64,000 nt of DNA from an uncultured Candidatus Binatia bacterium. GTDB lineage: Bacteria > Desulfobacterota > Binatia > Bin18. The stretch is from positions 3,556,517-3,620,516 of the forward strand of contig OZ241744.1 of the NCBI GenBank assembly GCA_965200965.1. Direction: 5' to 3'. Positions 14,209 to 21,768 of the stretch are shown here, piece after piece; position 1 is the first letter of the stretch, and every line of letters starts with the position of its first letter. A program made the position numbers and the translations under genes. The notes under the pieces are model-generated. The model was not told where the DNA came from and ran no database searches. It worked only from the letters and a program-made list of their open reading frames with translations.

Positions 14209-14708
14209 CAGATCAGAAAAGTCAGGTTGGGCAAGGGTTCTGCCGCGTTGACCAGCAACACCTGCTTCCAGAACATCTTGAGTTCGCCGTTGACCCAGCG
14301 CAGCTTGTGGATCGTCCGCCCGCCCCACTGGCGCAGCTCGTGTCTGGCCTGGACGGATAGCTCTAACAACAGGAAGTTTGAGCCGACGATACACTCGCCG
14401 GCGTCGGTCTTTTCGACCTCGATGTTCGAGATCAGCCGGCGCATGACCGAGGCCGGCTCCTGGCTATAGCGGAAGCCGCTTTGGAGGAGCTTGATGCGCG
14501 TCGCAATCCGGGATCGGTTGTCGTAGATGTGCGACATCTGGCATCTGGGGTCGGTGTCGCCGCGTGGCTGGGCCGGCACCCAATAGGTGGCGTCGTCCTC
14601 CCACAGGGCTTCCCATTCGGCGTAGCAGGCCTCATCGGCCAGCCGCGCTTCCTTGTAGAGAAAAGCCTCAACCGCACGATAGTCGGTGTCTGACAGCATG
14701 GGGTTCAC
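14208..14708 (-). CDS. Aromatic ring-hydroxylating dioxygenase beta subunit
   Basis: FLYKEARLADE...YWVP...RRLISN; coupled to the alpha subunit. Confidence 0.9.
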   Translation of the reverse strand: MNPMLSDTDYRAVEAFLYKEARLADEACYAEWEALWEDDATYWVPAQPRGDTDPRCQMSHIYDNRSRIATRIKLLQSGFRYSQEPASVMRRLISNIEVEKTDAGECIVGSNFLLLELSVQARHELRQWGGRTIHKLRWVNGELKMFWKQVLLVNAAEPLPNLTFLI

Positions 14709-15979
14709 CGGCTCATCACCGCGCGGTAGTGTTTCCAGAAGGCGCGGTTGGTGACCTCATCGGTGACGTGGGCCACGATCCGCCCCTGCTCGTCACGGTG
14801 TTCGCGGTGCTGGCCGCGGCTCAACTCCAGCCACTCGGGCTGGCGGGCGTACAGGCCGGCCTGGTTGCGGCTGGCAATGGTGATGTCCTCGGGCAGCAGA
14901 AAGGAGGCCGGGCCCATAGCCGCTTCGCTCTGGCGCAGCAGCCGGGCGTTCAGCTCTGGTGCGCCCTTGAGAAACATGGGCGTATGCCACTGGATCGATT
15001 CCTCGGCGCTGAGCGGATAGAACAGGGCGATGTTCATCTCGGCCAGGAACAGGTTGGGGAAGATCAGGGCGTGGGGCGGGCCTTCAAACACCCGTCGCTG
15101 GGCTTCGGCCTTGCCGCACCTGTGCTCCAGGGCCGACAGGTAGGCGGCGTATTTGTCAGGAGCGGCACCAAACCACTCAAACGGTTTTTGGTAGCCCAGC
15201 GCCCATTCAATCTCGGTATGGCCGTTGCCCCAGTCGCGCACAATGCCCTTATTGCTGCCCTCGTCGCCGACAAAGCGCTGATAGTGGGAGCCGGCCGCCT
15301 TGAGAATGGCGCTATGCACAAAGCCCAGATGATAGCCGTCGGTATCGTTCTCGGGGATCATCTTCCAGTTTGACTGGTAGCGGTGTTTGATCCAGCCGGC
15401 GCGGAGATCAAGCTCGCCCTCGGGCGACAGGTTACAGGCGCGGTCAATGATCAGGCTGGCGCTGCCCAGGTGCTCGGCCAGCGACGGGCCGTGGAGGCTC
15501 AGGCTGGCGAACACAAAGCCCCGGTAGCTGTCGCAGCGAGCGACCCGCGACAGGCCATAGTCGGCCTTGTTGAAGTCCGGGCCATAGGCCCCGGGGTAGG
15601 GCACACCGGTCAGCCTGCCGCTCAGGTTATACGTCCAGCCGTGGTAGGGGCAGGTAAACGCCCGGGCGTTGCCCGAGTCTGCCGGGCAGACCATGGTGCC
15701 GCGGTGGGCGCAGCGGTTGAGAAAGACCGACACGGCGGCGGCTTTGTCACGGACCATGAGCACCGGTTGGCGGCCGATCTGACGGGTCACATAGTCGCCC
15801 GGCTGGGGGATCTCGCTCTCGTGGCCGACAAACACCCACACCCGGTAGAAGATTTTTTCGAGTTCCTGCTCAAAGATGTGCGGGTCGGTGTAGAGCGAGG
15901 CGTGAACTTTGTCGTCGTGAACCAGGGTCTCAACGACCGGTGTCTCAAACTGGCTTCCGTTGTGTGTGGCCTGCTGCAT
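14705..15979 (-). CDS. Rieske aromatic ring-hydroxylating dioxygenase alpha subunit
   Basis: NRCAHRG and CPYHGW Rieske ligands; ENDTDGYHLGFVH mononuclear Fe site. Confidence 0.93.
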   Translation of the reverse strand: MQQATHNGSQFETPVVETLVHDDKVHASLYTDPHIFEQELEKIFYRVWVFVGHESEIPQPGDYVTRQIGRQPVLMVRDKAAAVSVFLNRCAHRGTMVCPADSGNARAFTCPYHGWTYNLSGRLTGVPYPGAYGPDFNKADYGLSRVARCDSYRGFVFASLSLHGPSLAEHLGSASLIIDRACNLSPEGELDLRAGWIKHRYQSNWKMIPENDTDGYHLGFVHSAILKAAGSHYQRFVGDEGSNKGIVRDWGNGHTEIEWALGYQKPFEWFGAAPDKYAAYLSALEHRCGKAEAQRRVFEGPPHALIFPNLFLAEMNIALFYPLSAEESIQWHTPMFLKGAPELNARLLRQSEAAMGPASFLLPEDITIASRNQAGLYARQPEWLELSRGQHREHRDEQGRIVAHVTDEVTNRAFWKHYRAVMSR

Positions 15980-16143: not shown

Positions 16144-16198
16144 GGACGCTTGACCATATATTGAGCAGGTGTGTAGCCTGGCATTCGGAGTAAAGATG

Positions 16199-16552
16199 AT
16201 GCACATCACTGAGGCGTTGATTGCCCGGATGGTGCGGGTCATTGTGGCCGAGGTAGACCCCGAGCAGGTGATGCTGTTCGGCTCCCGGGCCCGGGGCGAG
16301 GCGCGGGCGGATTCGGATGTGGACCTGATCGTTGTCGAGGCCGAACCCTTTGGGCCGGGCCGCAGCCGCCGCAAGGAGTTGACCCGCGTCAGCCTGGCGT
16401 TGTTCGATTTCGAGATCCCTGTTGACGTTCTGCTCTACAGCCGCGACGAAATAGACTATTGGCACAATTCCCCCAACCATGTGATTGCCCGTGCCCTGCG
16501 GGAAGGCAAGCTGCTGTATGAGCGACCTGAAACAGGCCAGAATGCTGCTTGA
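16199..16552 (+). CDS. Minimal nucleotidyltransferase (MNT antitoxin), copy 1
   Basis: LFGSRARGEARADSDVDL (GSx10DxD) and ALREGKLLYE. Confidence 0.88.
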   Translation: MHITEALIARMVRVIVAEVDPEQVMLFGSRARGEARADSDVDLIVVEAEPFGPGRSRRKELTRVSLALFDFEIPVDVLLYSRDEIDYWHNSPNHVIARALREGKLLYERPETGQNAA

Positions 16553-16654
16553 GGCCGCTGGACGGGACCTTTCGACCGTGAAGCCGCTCTGGACTTGGCG
16601 CAGTCATTATTTGACCGTGTGCAACGCCTCTTGGGCGAGACGGAAGGAACCTGA
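16518..16654 (+). pseudogene. HEPN toxin remnant with internal deletion
   Basis: ATG overlaps the MNT 3' end; MSDLKQARMLLEAAGRDL is followed out of frame by a C-terminal helix, DREAALDLAQSLFDRVQRLL; the core is missing. Confidence 0.6.
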
Positions 16655-16659
16655 GCGGG

Positions 16660-17022
16660 ATGCACGTCACTGAGGCGTTGATTGCCCAGATGGTGCGGGC
16701 CATTGTGGATGAGGTAGACCCCGAGCAGGTGATGCTGTTTGGCTCCCGGGCCCGGGGCGAGGCGCGGGCGGATTCGGATGTGGACCTGATCGTTGTCGAG
16801 GCCGAACCCTTCGGGCCGAGCCGCAGCCGTCACCGGGAGATGGTCAGGCTCTATCATGCGTTGGCGGGTTTTCGGGTTGGCATTGACGTGCTGGTCTACT
16901 CGCGTGACGATGTGGCGTACTGGCGCGATTCGCTCAACCATGTGTTGGCGCGCGCACTGCGGGAGGGGAAGGTGCTGTATGAGCGACCTCCAAGAAAGAG
17001 CATGGGCAAAAACGTGGCTTGA
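16660..17022 (+). CDS. Minimal nucleotidyltransferase (MNT antitoxin), copy 2
   Basis: Same GSx10DxD motif; the first ~170 bp nearly duplicate copy 1. Confidence 0.88.
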   Translation: MHVTEALIAQMVRAIVDEVDPEQVMLFGSRARGEARADSDVDLIVVEAEPFGPSRSRHREMVRLYHALAGFRVGIDVLVYSRDDVAYWRDSLNHVLARALREGKVLYERPPRKSMGKNVA

Positions 17023-17060
17023 TGCAGGGGTTGCTTACCGGCGAGTGGTGAGTTAGAGTG
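16992..17060 (+). pseudogene. 3' scrap resembling a type I R-M specificity subunit (HsdS)
   Basis: Reads KKEHGQKRGLMQGLLTGEW*VRV, resembling the HsdS terminal motif QKxGLMQxLLTGxxRV. Confidence 0.55.
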
Positions 17061-17188
17061 CGGCTGAGCTTGGCGAGTATAAAGCAGAAAGACGGGTCTC
17101 ATGCGAAGATCTTGGGACGGGTTGCCCCGCTGTAGCCAGTGAATGTATAAATCCACAACCTCCAATAAGACGACCAAAGACGGGGTAG

Positions 17189-18250
17189 ATGAGCTTGAGC
17201 GTATCACAAATTTTTCCAGGAATCGAAACCGGCTTAAACAACATGGGATTCCTTTTCGGTGCGGGTACGTCAAAAGAGGCAGGGTTTCCGCTTATGCAAG
17301 ATATTACCAGGACAGTGGTCGGCAATCTGTCTCGCGTGAATAGAGAAACACTGGACAATCTCCTCAGCCAGGAAAGGTTGAGCTACGACGAGACCACTGG
17401 AGACCCGAACATCGAAATCCTTTCAGATTCTGTAAGGAGGTATTTTGTGGATACACAGAACAATAGCTACAGTGAGCTAGAAAGCGAAATTCGTAGAGCA
17501 ATCGTTGGAACGATTCTCGATGTTAGAAACCCTGATCTGACCTACCATATCCAATTTCTCAAGGCTCTAAAAAAAAGAGCAGGCGGTATGCCGCCTAGTA
17601 CGCCTATTATCACAATCTTTACTACAAATTACGACATTCTTTTTGAGCTTGCTGCTGGAGAAGTGGGAGTTCGGATCGAGACGGGATTCGATGGCCCCTT
17701 GAGTAGATTTTTCAACCCCACAGTTTTCAATCTGCACAGGGGCGAAATAAGTAGTGGTGGAAGGAAGACAACCTTTGAGGAGAGCCACAAATTATGGATC
17801 AATCTCATCAAACTTCACGGCTCGATATCTTGGTTTAAGAAGGGAAATGCAACAATTGAGAGTGGGATTAACCTCCTTGACCAATGTCGATCACGAGAGA
17901 TGATTCTTCCTCGCCGCCAAAAGATCATGGACACCTTAGCCCCGCCTTTCGATTCCTTATTCACTCGCTCTTCGCAGATGCTTGGATCGATCTGTAAGTA
18001 TCTGGCAAGTTGTGGATTCAGTTTCAGTGACCAACATATCAACGATCAATTGATTTTTCCAAAATTGCGGGAAGGAAGGATTCAACTAACCGCGCTTTGT
18101 GGAGAAACTCCCGAATGTTTGAACGATCTAAGACAGTTTGGGGCGTTTTGTGGGGCATTTCCCGATAACTGTTATATTGACGGCAAGGATACAAACAAAG
18201 GAACAGACCTTTGGAAATTCAGCGAATTTGTTCGCCTCTTGGAACCATAA
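17189..18250 (+). CDS. SIR2-like (SIR2_2) NADase, defence-associated
   Basis: FLFGAGTS, FTTNYD, KLHGSISW, GFSFSDQHIN; visibly more AT-rich than the flanks. Confidence 0.88.
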   Translation: MSLSVSQIFPGIETGLNNMGFLFGAGTSKEAGFPLMQDITRTVVGNLSRVNRETLDNLLSQERLSYDETTGDPNIEILSDSVRRYFVDTQNNSYSELESEIRRAIVGTILDVRNPDLTYHIQFLKALKKRAGGMPPSTPIITIFTTNYDILFELAAGEVGVRIETGFDGPLSRFFNPTVFNLHRGEISSGGRKTTFEESHKLWINLIKLHGSISWFKKGNATIESGINLLDQCRSREMILPRRQKIMDTLAPPFDSLFTRSSQMLGSICKYLASCGFSFSDQHINDQLIFPKLREGRIQLTALCGETPECLNDLRQFGAFCGAFPDNCYIDGKDTNKGTDLWKFSEFVRLLEP

Positions 18251-18270
18251 TGACAAAAGGGGTTTGCAAT

Positions 18271-19770
18271 ATGAGCGACTATAAAATCGGAGAAGTGATA
18301 AGCGTTTCTGGCGAAAGAGTCTTCATCACCTTACTTGACTATGACGATAAATCGGAGACAGGCGTTCCTTCGACCATGATGGTAAATGTTCTAACAGAAA
18401 ACGGCCCGACTCCGTTACTGATCGGTCAGCCAGGAACTTTTGTGTCCATTGCACTATCCTCCGGTAAACTTCTGGCGATGATTACAACAATTGACATGAA
18501 GGAGACAGAATTGTTACAGGCTGAAATCAAGCTGCGGGGTATGAACGCGGAGGCGGTAGACCTGATCTACTTGGACCCGCCCTTCAACAGCAATCAGACC
18601 TATGCCGCACCCATCGGCTCCGAGGCGGCAGGTGCGGCCTTCAAAGATACCTGGACGCTCGATGATGTAGACGTGGCTTGGCACGGCGAGATTGCCGAGC
18701 AGGAGCCGGCCCTCTACGCGATTATTGATGCTGCCGGCCTCAGCCACTCGCCGGGCATGAAGAGCTACCTGATTATGATGGCGGTGCGATTGCTGGAGAT
18801 GCGCCGGGTGCTCAAGCCGACCGGCTCCATCTACTTGCATTGCAATCAAGATGCCGGCCACTACCTGAAACTCCTCATGGATGCCGTGTTCGGGAAGAAG
18901 GCGTTTATCACAGAAGTGGTGTGGAATTACGGCACTCCATCCGGGGGGCGCTCCGCTGGGAAAAAGCCGATCAAAGTGCATGACGTGCTGTTGGTCTATG
19001 CAAAGCGGTATGGGCAACACCTGTACAACCGGCAATTCACGCCGTACAGCGAGCAATACAAAGCTTGGTTCCGTCACGACGATGGCGACGGGCGATTGTA
19101 TCAGACCCGTTCACGGAAAGGCAAAATCGTCAAGCAATACCTTGATGAAAGCCCTGGAATCCCTCTTTCAACCTGTTGGTCAGACATTATGCAGATATAC
19201 GGACAGCAAGGCTGGTTTCCCACCACACAAAAGGAGCGCACCGGCTACCCCACCCAGAAGCCCCTTGCGCTGTTAGAGCGCATCATCACCGCCAGCAGCA
19301 ATCCCGGCGACATCGTGCTGGACCCCTTCTGCGGCTGCGCCACGGCCCTCGTCACCGCGGAACACCTGAACCGCCAATGGGTCGGCATTGACCTCTCCCC
19401 GGTGGCCGCCCGGCTGGTCAAGAGCCGCCTGGAGAAAGAGATGGGGCTGTTCTACGATGTGCATCACCGCCAGGACATCCCCCGGCGGAGCGACCTGGGC
19501 GAACTGCCGCACTACAAGACGCATAAGCATAGCTTGTTCGGTCGGCAGGAAGGGCTGTGCGGCGGGTGTGGTGTGGCCTTCCCGTTTCGCAACTTCACCA
19601 TTGACCACATTGTCTCCCGGGCCAAGGGCGGCACGGATCATTTCGACAACCTGCAACTGCTGTGCGGGGCGTGCAACAGCGCCAAGGGGCGGGGCACGCA
19701 GGCGGAACTCAAGGCGCGGCTGCGGGCGCAAGGGGTGATTGGGAAGGGGGCAGGGCGCAGATCGGCGTAG
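18271..19770 (+). CDS. Chimeric ORF: HerA-like N-terminal fragment + beta-class N4/N6 DNA methyltransferase + HNH nuclease
   Basis: IGEVISVSG...IGQPGTFVSI...LLAMIT (to ~18531); then DLIYLDPPFN, YPTQKP, LDPFCGCAT; then CGGC...IDHIVSRAKGG...NLQLLCGACNSAK. Confidence 0.8.
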   Translation: MSDYKIGEVISVSGERVFITLLDYDDKSETGVPSTMMVNVLTENGPTPLLIGQPGTFVSIALSSGKLLAMITTIDMKETELLQAEIKLRGMNAEAVDLIYLDPPFNSNQTYAAPIGSEAAGAAFKDTWTLDDVDVAWHGEIAEQEPALYAIIDAAGLSHSPGMKSYLIMMAVRLLEMRRVLKPTGSIYLHCNQDAGHYLKLLMDAVFGKKAFITEVVWNYGTPSGGRSAGKKPIKVHDVLLVYAKRYGQHLYNRQFTPYSEQYKAWFRHDDGDGRLYQTRSRKGKIVKQYLDESPGIPLSTCWSDIMQIYGQQGWFPTTQKERTGYPTQKPLALLERIITASSNPGDIVLDPFCGCATALVTAEHLNRQWVGIDLSPVAARLVKSRLEKEMGLFYDVHHRQDIPRRSDLGELPHYKTHKHSLFGRQEGLCGGCGVAFPFRNFTIDHIVSRAKGGTDHFDNLQLLCGACNSAKGRGTQAELKARLRAQGVIGKGAGRRSA

Positions 19771-20031: not shown

Positions 20032-21663
20032 TCAAGGACGGAATGTGTCATCAGATCGCACGGCAGGCGAGGCGTTCCGTCCTTCGTCATCCATCGGCAG
20101 ACGCCCGTCAATATCCAGGCCGGCGGCCCGCCAGCGTCGCTCGCCGATGCGGGTTATGACGGCGAGCAGGAGCAGGACGACGGCGATAAAGCCCACGGTC
20201 CAGCGGGCGACGGCGTTCTGGCTCAGGCCGTGGAGGTAGTCGGGGAGGCTCTGGAAGCAGAAGCCAACGATAACGACGAGCAGGTAGGCCGGCGAGAGAT
20301 ATTTGATGATGAAGCGGAAGAAATGGGGGATGCGGAGCAAGGCCCCGCGGTGGGCCTCGGCCAGACCCCGGTCAATGCCGAAGACCCAGCCGAAGCAGAT
20401 AATCAGCGCGGTGGCCATGACGAAAATGCCAAGCGTGCCAACCCAGAAGTCCATCGTGTCGAGGGCGACGAGGTCCTGGCTGAAGTACAGCACCCACAGC
20501 GAGCCGAAGGTGGACAGCAGGCCGAGACAGGCGATGGCGGTGGAGCGGGGCATAGCCAGGGCTTCGGACAGGAAGGCGAATATTGGCTGGAGCATGGACA
20601 GGGAGCTGGTGACGCCGGCCAGGAACAGCATGAGGAAGAAAATGGCACCGATGATCTGCCCGAAGACGCCCATGTGGGCGAAGACGACCGGCAGGGTGTG
20701 AAAGCCGAGGCCGAAGCTGCTGCCGACGGCGATGCCGGCCCCCAGAAAGATGAAGGCCGCAGGGATGGTAATCAGGCCGCCGAGGGCGACTTCAACGAAC
20801 TCGTTGGTGGAGGAGGCGGTCAGCCCGGACAGCACCACATCGTCTTTTTTGCTGAGGTAGGAGGCGTAGTTGATGATGACGCCAAAGCCGACCGACAGGC
20901 TGAAGAAGACTTGGCTGGCCGCGGCTAACCAAGTCTTGAAGTCGCCGAGTTTGGAGAGGTCGGGGTTCCACATGAAGCCGAGGCCGCCCAGGACATTCTG
21001 GTCGGGCAGGCTGGGGTCGGGCGTGCCCAGGGTCAGGACGCGGGCGAGCACAATCAGGGCGCAGACGAGCATGGTCGGCATGGCGATCTTGCAGAAGGTC
21101 TCGATGCCTTTGGCCAGACCACGCCAGATGAACCACAGGTTGAAGGCGACGGTGGCCAGCAGAAACAGCACGCCGGGGTGCAGGCTGCCGTTCAGGGTCA
21201 GGCCGTTGGCCTTGTCGCCGGTCACCGCGGTAAAGAAGTCGCCCGACTGGGCGGTGTACCGGGTCGGGTCTGGACCAAGGTCAATGCTGCCGGTCAGGTA
21301 GGCAACAAAGTAGCGCAGGCACCACGATTCGATCAGCACATAGTACATGTAGACGATGAGCGGGACGAGCAGGCCGAGGACGCCGCTGTAGCGGGCCGTC
21401 GATCCCCTGCCGACGATGCCCAGAATGGCCGGGGCGGAATGCAGGCCCTTGCGCCCGCCGTAGCGGCCGAGGCTCCACTCCGCCCAGCAGATCGGGATGC
21501 CCAGAAACAGCAGGGCGCAGAAGTAGGGGATCATGAACGCCCCGCCGCCGTTCTGGGCGACTTGGCCGGGAAAGCGCAGAAAATTGCCCATGCCTACCGC
21601 GGACCCCGCTACGGCTAAAATGACCCCGACCCGACTCCCCCAACGCTCCTGCTGTTCAGTCAT
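20032..21663 (-). CDS. Sodium-dependent transporter (NSS/SNF family)
   Basis: ERWGSRVGVILAVAGSAVGMGNFLRFP...GGGAFMIPY and QVFFSLSVG. Confidence 0.93.
   Translation of the reverse strand: MTEQQERWGSRVGVILAVAGSAVGMGNFLRFPGQVAQNGGGAFMIPYFCALLFLGIPICWAEWSLGRYGGRKGLHSAPAILGIVGRGSTARYSGVLGLLVPLIVYMYYVLIESWCLRYFVAYLTGSIDLGPDPTRYTAQSGDFFTAVTGDKANGLTLNGSLHPGVLFLLATVAFNLWFIWRGLAKGIETFCKIAMPTMLVCALIVLARVLTLGTPDPSLPDQNVLGGLGFMWNPDLSKLGDFKTWLAAASQVFFSLSVGFGVIINYASYLSKKDDVVLSGLTASSTNEFVEVALGGLITIPAAFIFLGAGIAVGSSFGLGFHTLPVVFAHMGVFGQIIGAIFFLMLFLAGVTSSLSMLQPIFAFLSEALAMPRSTAIACLGLLSTFGSLWVLYFSQDLVALDTMDFWVGTLGIFVMATALIICFGWVFGIDRGLAEAHRGALLRIPHFFRFIIKYLSPAYLLVVIVGFCFQSLPDYLHGLSQNAVARWTVGFIAVVLLLLAVITRIGERRWRAAGLDIDGRLPMDDEGRNASPAVRSDDTFRP
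20034..20084. repeat. Intragenic palindromic element, copy A
   Basis: aaggacggaatgtgtc...gaggcgttccgtcctt; homologous to 59004-59054. Confidence 0.8.
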
Positions 21664-21768
21664 GCTGCTGTCTTCCCTCTGAGACACAATGAGGCAGGCC
21701 GTATGTCCACTGCCCGAAGCCGATACCGATTTGTATACCGCCTCGGGCGGCACGCATCCGACTAGCCA

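Follow-up and report, generated by a model that had tools for sequence, protein, structure and literature searches.

A HerA-methyltransferase hybrid beside an orphan Sir2 gene: a likely relic of an in-frame deletion at a variable defence locus

Within the 64,000-nucleotide stretch of Candidatus Binatia DNA analysed here (the window), an open sir2 gene is followed by a single hybrid reading frame, ORF2, in which residues 1-87 of HerA are joined in frame to a methyltransferase-HNH protein lacking its first ~19 codons. We hold with considerable confidence that this hybrid is the scar of an in-frame deletion, and that its product contributes nothing to defence next to an orphan, autoinhibited Sir2. 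The deletion was likely a recent one in a variable defence slot, and ordinary decay of a defence island, not the appearance of a new system, is the likely account, because the part of HerA lost here is still encoded by a sister strain that is nearly identical. The ancestral slot likely carried three consecutive genes, sir2, herA and a methyltransferase-HNH gene that stood on its own; a recent deletion of ~1.6 kb would have fused the third of these, from about its codon 20, in frame to herA codon 87. To judge from published Sir2-HerA work, a part-barrel without an ATPase should be unable to build the hexamer that grips Sir2, and the orphan Sir2 would be silent. The methyltransferase would be impaired.

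Two sister strains would in this way have lost the same Sir2-HerA system by different routes, one through a stop and the other through a deletion. The locus is a clean example of defence-island decay and carries little weight as found, and it warns that in-frame scars resemble new domain fusions. Deletions are common in the slot, one in three is expected to be in frame, and in-frame joins are the only deletions of this sort that catch a reader's eye.

Table 1. Features of the defence slot, in positions of the window
Feature	Position	Strand	Basis
MNT (minimal nucleotidyltransferase) copy 1, the antitoxin-type partner in an MNT-HEPN pair	16196..16552	+	Pfam Polbeta, E 7e-12
HEPN remnant	16518..16654	+	tblastn, complete HEPN genes (130-132 aa) of G005 as queries, same slot
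MNT copy 2	16660..17022	+	Pfam Polbeta, E 2.4e-11
Sir2 (SIR2_2) gene of a Sir2-HerA system	17189..18250	+	Pfam, PADLOC, motifs; frame intact
HerA residues 1-87	18271..18531	+	Identical to aa 1-87 of P0001/P0043; P0001 model
Deletion junction	18531..18532	+	Run contigs X3 record 18 and X1 record 3, length arithmetic
Beta-class N6/N4 methyltransferase-HNH without N-terminal lead	18532..19770	+	Pfam, homologs, paralog remnant G000:C1:498128

The Sir2 gene and the hybrid frame behind it

The Sir2 gene encodes 353 residues that match Pfam SIR2_2 (E 5.5e-8) and, across their full length, the PADLOC SIR2 profile PDLC04081 (453 bits); the Sir2 proteins of three solved Sir2-HerA complexes match the Sir2 profile at E 2e-29 to 4e-23. 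The motifs GAGTS, TTNYD, KLHGS and DQHIN are present, the catalytic motifs are intact, and the invariant residues T145, N147, Y148, H210, D281 and H283 are retained. The GC content of the gene is 0.45 against 0.61 for the genome. A search of a collection of genome contigs with Sir2 returned only distant matches of 24-32% identity, and no close Sir2 was found among 54 genomes of the family. Relatives at 38-61% identity precede a HerA of ~570 aa in metagenome loci. Two small in-frame, duplication-like insertions (9 and 6 bases, at ~17594-17603 and ~17753) are absent both from close homologs and from a low-depth contig of run X4. For promoters, a promoter and terminator scan gave nothing above chance.

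ORF2 is open throughout its 499 codons, from an ATG that lies 20 bases 3' of the Sir2 stop and downstream of a ribosome-binding-like G-run. The Sir2 stop is also overlapped by an in-frame ATG at 18250 (TAATG at 18248-18252), and HerA may therefore be translationally coupled to Sir2 from that position, the start from which the sister protein P0043 is called. Base composition steps exactly at the junction, GC rising from 0.44 to 0.60 and GC3 from 0.48 to 0.76. The first 87 residues are a HerA start, and the remainder matches N6_N4_Mtase (ORF2 residues 96-383, E 2e-37) and HNH (residues 430-482, E 1e-12). The match of the first part to the PADLOC HerA profile is weak (E 5e-4), and all 42 proteins found with ORF2 residues 1-100 carry PF01935, none of them a methyltransferase family. 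A low-confidence structure model of the hybrid had a mean pLDDT of 47.5, with residues 73-130 below 50, and was made from a shallow alignment of 24 rows, four of them methyltransferases; a larger mixed alignment misplaced the HerA rows and was set aside.

Much of this had been anticipated by a sequence-only reading of the locus, and its description has held up well. It had noted an intact AT-rich SIR2-like gene, an ORF beginning 20 bp after the SIR2 stop with a HerA-like start, a switch without a stop to GC-rich DNA at ~18531, a beta-class methyltransferase plus HNH beyond it, no HerA Walker motifs in the ORF, a barrel ending before its final strands and a methyltransferase without its usual GDNL lead-in, and each of these points agrees with the ORF calls, profile matches, structure model and homolog comparisons described here.

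The sister allele and the size of the deletion

The unfused arrangement is found in X3, a sponge metagenome whose sample and study are other than those of run X1. One of its contigs (record 18, 3347 bases) follows the window over 16776-18531 with a single difference and then continues for 1591 bases that do not match the window. The exact Sir2 protein of the window is encoded, together with P0043, on a Logan contig of 3347 bases; P0001, from the same cluster as P0043, is encoded on a contig of 234393 bases. Over residues 1-87 both of these HerA proteins are identical to ORF2; they then run on as HerA through Walker A and end at a stop after residue 339. A further protein of 215 aa, P0192, is a C-terminal HerA piece beginning at about residue 355, 87% identical to residues 357-571 of the full-length HerA P0002, and lies on a contig of the same size as that of P0001. 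From the stop in P0001 and the position of P0192 it follows that the sister herA is collinear and split in two. Thus of the gene directly 3' of sir2 the window keeps only the first 87 codons, the remainder being present, though broken by a stop, in the sister strain. The same sequence-only reading had offered, as its fallback, a deletion that happened to stay in frame, and the sister allele upholds it.

The sister contig also allows the deletion to be sized. If the contig ends in the usual 30-base overlap, 21 of the 1591 bases overlap, and the remaining 1570 equal 1449 (HerA residues 88-569 and the stop) plus 57 (the 19-codon lead) plus 64 (a spacer). By this arithmetic the deleted length would be ~1570 bases, about 1.6 kb, and herA and the methyltransferase gene would have been adjacent in the sister or ancestral slot. 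The methyltransferase letters that precede 18532 differ from the window, 9 of them in X3 (record 19) and 49 in X4 (record 29). Judged from the paralog lead and the next codon of the sister, the join appears to be blunt, without microhomology. Against the scar it can be said that both the Sir2 and the methyltransferase-HNH frames are open in the window, whereas the sister's methyltransferase is frameshifted by a 1-base deletion at 19192. Open frames with no clear damage would fit a recent deletion, but would fit selection on an open frame as well.

What the cut leaves of each partner

The methyltransferase side is well preserved from the join onward. Its large, uncharacterised family, defined by PF01555 plus PF01844 (7951 matches among 8000 candidates scored), probably consists of one-chain restriction-modification-like enzymes. 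The hybrid is 75% identical to one member, P0049, from residue 20 of the latter, with DPPF (motif IV) preceding DPFCG (motif I) and followed by an HNH with two CxxC pairs, all intact; across 400 aligned of 412 methyltransferase-HNH residues a single column departs from the 85% family consensus, and there is no clear damaging change. What differs from the family is the beginning, where the first ~19 residues, including the GD-N-L lead, are replaced by the 87 HerA residues. This lead is present in 104 of the best 120 of the 7951 homologs, the other 16 being listed from an internal Met, possibly through mis-called starts. The longest stretch before motif IV in the same 120 is 54 residues, compared with 99 in the hybrid.

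The lost lead is likely to matter. By position, its Asp likely corresponds to D8 of M1.HpyAVI, reported to bind the adenine of SAM; there, D8A lowered affinity ~fivefold and reduced activity (PMC5173035). The strand removed with it is likely an edge strand, by comparison with enzymes described in PMC5173035 and PMC7544214. Because both the edge strand and an acidic residue contacting the SAM adenine would be gone, the methyltransferase is likely impaired, though not certainly.

It could be argued that the same deletion occurred and the methyltransferase-HNH still works, with the HerA stub inert or translation starting at ATG 18541, and with no part for Sir2. We regard this as improbable. The catalytic motifs downstream of the join are all there, the lost strand is likely an edge strand, D8A lowered SAM affinity only about fivefold, 16 homologs are listed from an internal Met, and no other copy of the subfamily in the genome is both whole-length and open. 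On the other side, most of the best homologs do keep the lead, and what is lost is not one side chain but an entire strand together with the beginning of the following helix. Moreover, the G-run ahead of ATG 18541 lies closer to it than is usual for a ribosome-binding site, ending one base short of it, and relatives lose the methyltransferase gene freely, as in X3 and in genome G007. The scar, with an impaired methyltransferase, remains the preferred reading.

The three other close methyltransferase-HNH copies in the genome (G000) are broken. One of them, the paralog remnant at G000:C1:498128, matches the window from base 18532 on and shows the lost lead; over G000:C1:498071-498404 this paralog has an early stop and a frameshift and is cut after ~110 codons, with small ORFs thereafter. 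Of 276 bases compared with the window copy, 13 differ, all of them silently, which may be a sign of past purifying selection or of gene conversion. Some 20 further ORFs of various lengths in G000:C1 have N6/N4 methyltransferase-like matches.

On the HerA side, AlphaFold2 modelling of P0001 (mean pLDDT 58.6; 61-82 in the barrel blocks) places predicted strands at residues 5-13, 16-21, 57-61, 66-77, 101-112 and 131-134 and a helix at 83-91. The join falls inside this helix, so that four of the six predicted barrel strands are kept, the last two (101-112 and 131-134) are lost, and the N-terminal barrel of the hybrid is incomplete. Fourteen columns invariant in 38 homologs lie within the removed part. 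The RecA-like ATPase domain, with Walker A and B, is not in ORF2, and a search of the one-contig genome with full-length P0002 did not find it: apart from the 87-residue stub it gave two weak matches, both unrelated.

Solved complexes indicate what these losses would mean. HerA is reported to contact Sir2 through its N-terminal barrel (PMC11514289; PMC11472057); in the Paenibacillus complex two barrels of the HerA hexamer bracket Sir2 helix 1, and the joint substitution F39A/Y60A/I100G/Q110A in HerA disrupts SIR2 binding or assembly (PMC11472057). I100 and Q110 align to residues 114 and 124, both deleted, so that by this alignment two of the four mapped Sir2-binding positions are gone. In the S. 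aureus complex a beta3-beta4 hairpin of HerA brackets Sir2 helix 1 and contributes to binding (PMC11514289), and this hairpin may be retained in the stub. Partners of HerA are described as subtype-specific, and in type III the ATPase lifts an ATP block on the NADase (PMC13434337). Paenibacillus SIR2 alone is reported not to hydrolyse NAD+ (PMC11472057) and S. aureus Sir2 alone to be likewise inactive (PMC11514289); by analogy the Sir2 of the window, without HerA, is likely autoinhibited, and this would make the orphan both harmless and silent.

Compared with the known Sir2-HerA systems (E. coli Nezha, 8J4U/8SU9; Paenibacillus 453MF, 8WLD/8WOC; S. aureus, 8YHX), the window likewise has SIR2_2 directly upstream of a herA start, but its HerA ends at residue 87, without the last barrel strands, the RecA-like ATPase or the helical bundle. 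Sir2 and the HerA stub are what is left of a system of this kind and do not make a working one. The solved HerA sequences closest to the parent HerA are those of HerA-DUF4297 (8ZIQ, 9C1M, 8XAU), in which HerA is full length and the partner is a nuclease, not Sir2.

The sequence-only reading had put forward a rewired module, in which the HerA stub tethers Sir2 to a restriction-modification-like protein and NAD+ depletion backs up restriction. This now appears very unlikely. The contact region of HerA is indeed the one that survives in part, with four strands kept, a G-run upstream of the start and an intact Sir2 next door. Beta-class methyltransferases are described as dimers (PMC7544214), and such a dimer could present two stubs to a Sir2 helix 1 that sits between two barrels. 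It is highly doubtful, however, that two stubs per methyltransferase-HNH dimer clamp helix 1 as neighbouring hexamer barrels do, making this a newborn defence system; equally doubtful is the idea that the state of the restriction enzyme gates the Sir2 NADase, so that phage attack on restriction brings about NAD+ depletion. The barrel is incomplete, half of the mapped contact positions and the whole ATPase are missing, and the fusion is known from one strain, whose sister has the genes unfused and already broken. If true, the tether would be a natural NAD+-depleting guard on a restriction-like enzyme, produced by one deletion and with the ancestral allele available for comparison.

Nor was the architecture found a second time in the collections searched. 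A HerA-methyltransferase fusion was seen in none of the 42 HerA-start matches, none of 23 representatives from 1.84 billion, none of 400 other genomes of the phylum and none of the best 80 of 350 metagenome loci, ranked by match to 339 aa; a HerA-like start was seen in none of the best 120 of 7951 methyltransferase-HNH homologs, and the HerA start was not found in viral contigs. These searches are biased against fusions, since the 80 loci were chosen by that ranking and clusters hide fused forms, the fusion in the window itself lying behind a 197-aa representative. Of the 80 best-ranked metagenome loci, 69 include the HerA start, which is full length in one ORF in 60, reaches the locus end in 5 and stops earlier in 4; it is fused in none, and Sir2 adjoins HerA in 67 of the 69. 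A methyltransferase match lies near HerA in 4 of the 80, each time as a separate ORF. Among the papers listed, none showed a HerA-barrel/methyltransferase fusion by its title or the opening of its abstract; HerA/FtsK systems with other partners are described (PMC12839542).

The junction and the slot around it

Read-derived contigs of four public runs were compared with the locus. Record 3 of X1 spans 16782-18561 with zero differences at a depth of 56, its neighbours having 40-60, and thereby crosses the junction. Its arm on the methyltransferase side is 30 letters long, one under the 31-letter criterion for a bridge. The end of this contig is explained by copy number, as 31-mers starting at or before 18531 occur once in the genome, and those from 18532 on, where 39 exact bases are shared by the window and the paralog remnant at C1:498128, occur twice. 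Since the X1 contig, unlike that of X3, is unbroken at 18531, no undeleted allele shows in X1. X1 may be the source sample, and it therefore tests the assembly and not independent biology. At 18367-18517 coverage is absent from run X2, and X4 has little; neither was used for the junction.

An assembly chimera, that is, a join made only in the assembly from repeated methyltransferase sequence, had been rated at least as likely as the tether, and the coincidence of the junction with the start of the paralog match and the short arm of the X1 contig speak for it, but it is now the least credible of the readings: misassembly is unlikely because an error-free contig crosses the join at the depth of its flanks, and the genome is one contig (3.62 Mb, 99.3% complete) with no orphaned rest of HerA. 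A reciprocal swap with the paralog at G000:C1:498128 was also considered and ruled out, as that copy has its own broken lead and is followed by other small genes, not HerA.

The probable deletion scar sits in a variable slot. On one side the locus is bordered by a gene at 14705-15979, on the other by a transporter-like gene (20032-21753). The corresponding interval is ~14-19 kb long in G003, G005 and G006, with Type I restriction-modification genes and variable cargo (Shedu, TIR, Schlafen, YhcG or MNT-HEPN; 39 of 96 long ORFs scanned); the slot of G004 is ~0.6 kb, and that of G007 has only a frameshifted C-terminal remnant of the same methyltransferase gene. Upstream of sir2, two tandem MNT copies, 82.5% identical in DNA, are each followed by a cut HEPN partner. 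In the first, the initial ~20 and the last ~30 codons of HEPN lie in different frames with the middle missing, which reads as an out-of-frame internal deletion, although the match of the 3' piece is weak (E 0.013). In the second, a HEPN-like start at 16979 matches for 4-5 codons only before the AT-richer cassette begins.

A joint in run X2 from 16279 to 16741 skips 461 bases, as if the MNT pair had collapsed to one copy. In the Type I loci of G003, G005 and G006 (L183, L184 and L185) the cargo between the restriction-modification genes appears swappable; the open frame at L184:6783-11384 (1534 aa) lacks any Pfam match at 1e-5. An element of ~50 bases (~20034-20083), close to where the transporter-like gene begins, recurs in about ten copies elsewhere in the genome, 81-91% identical.
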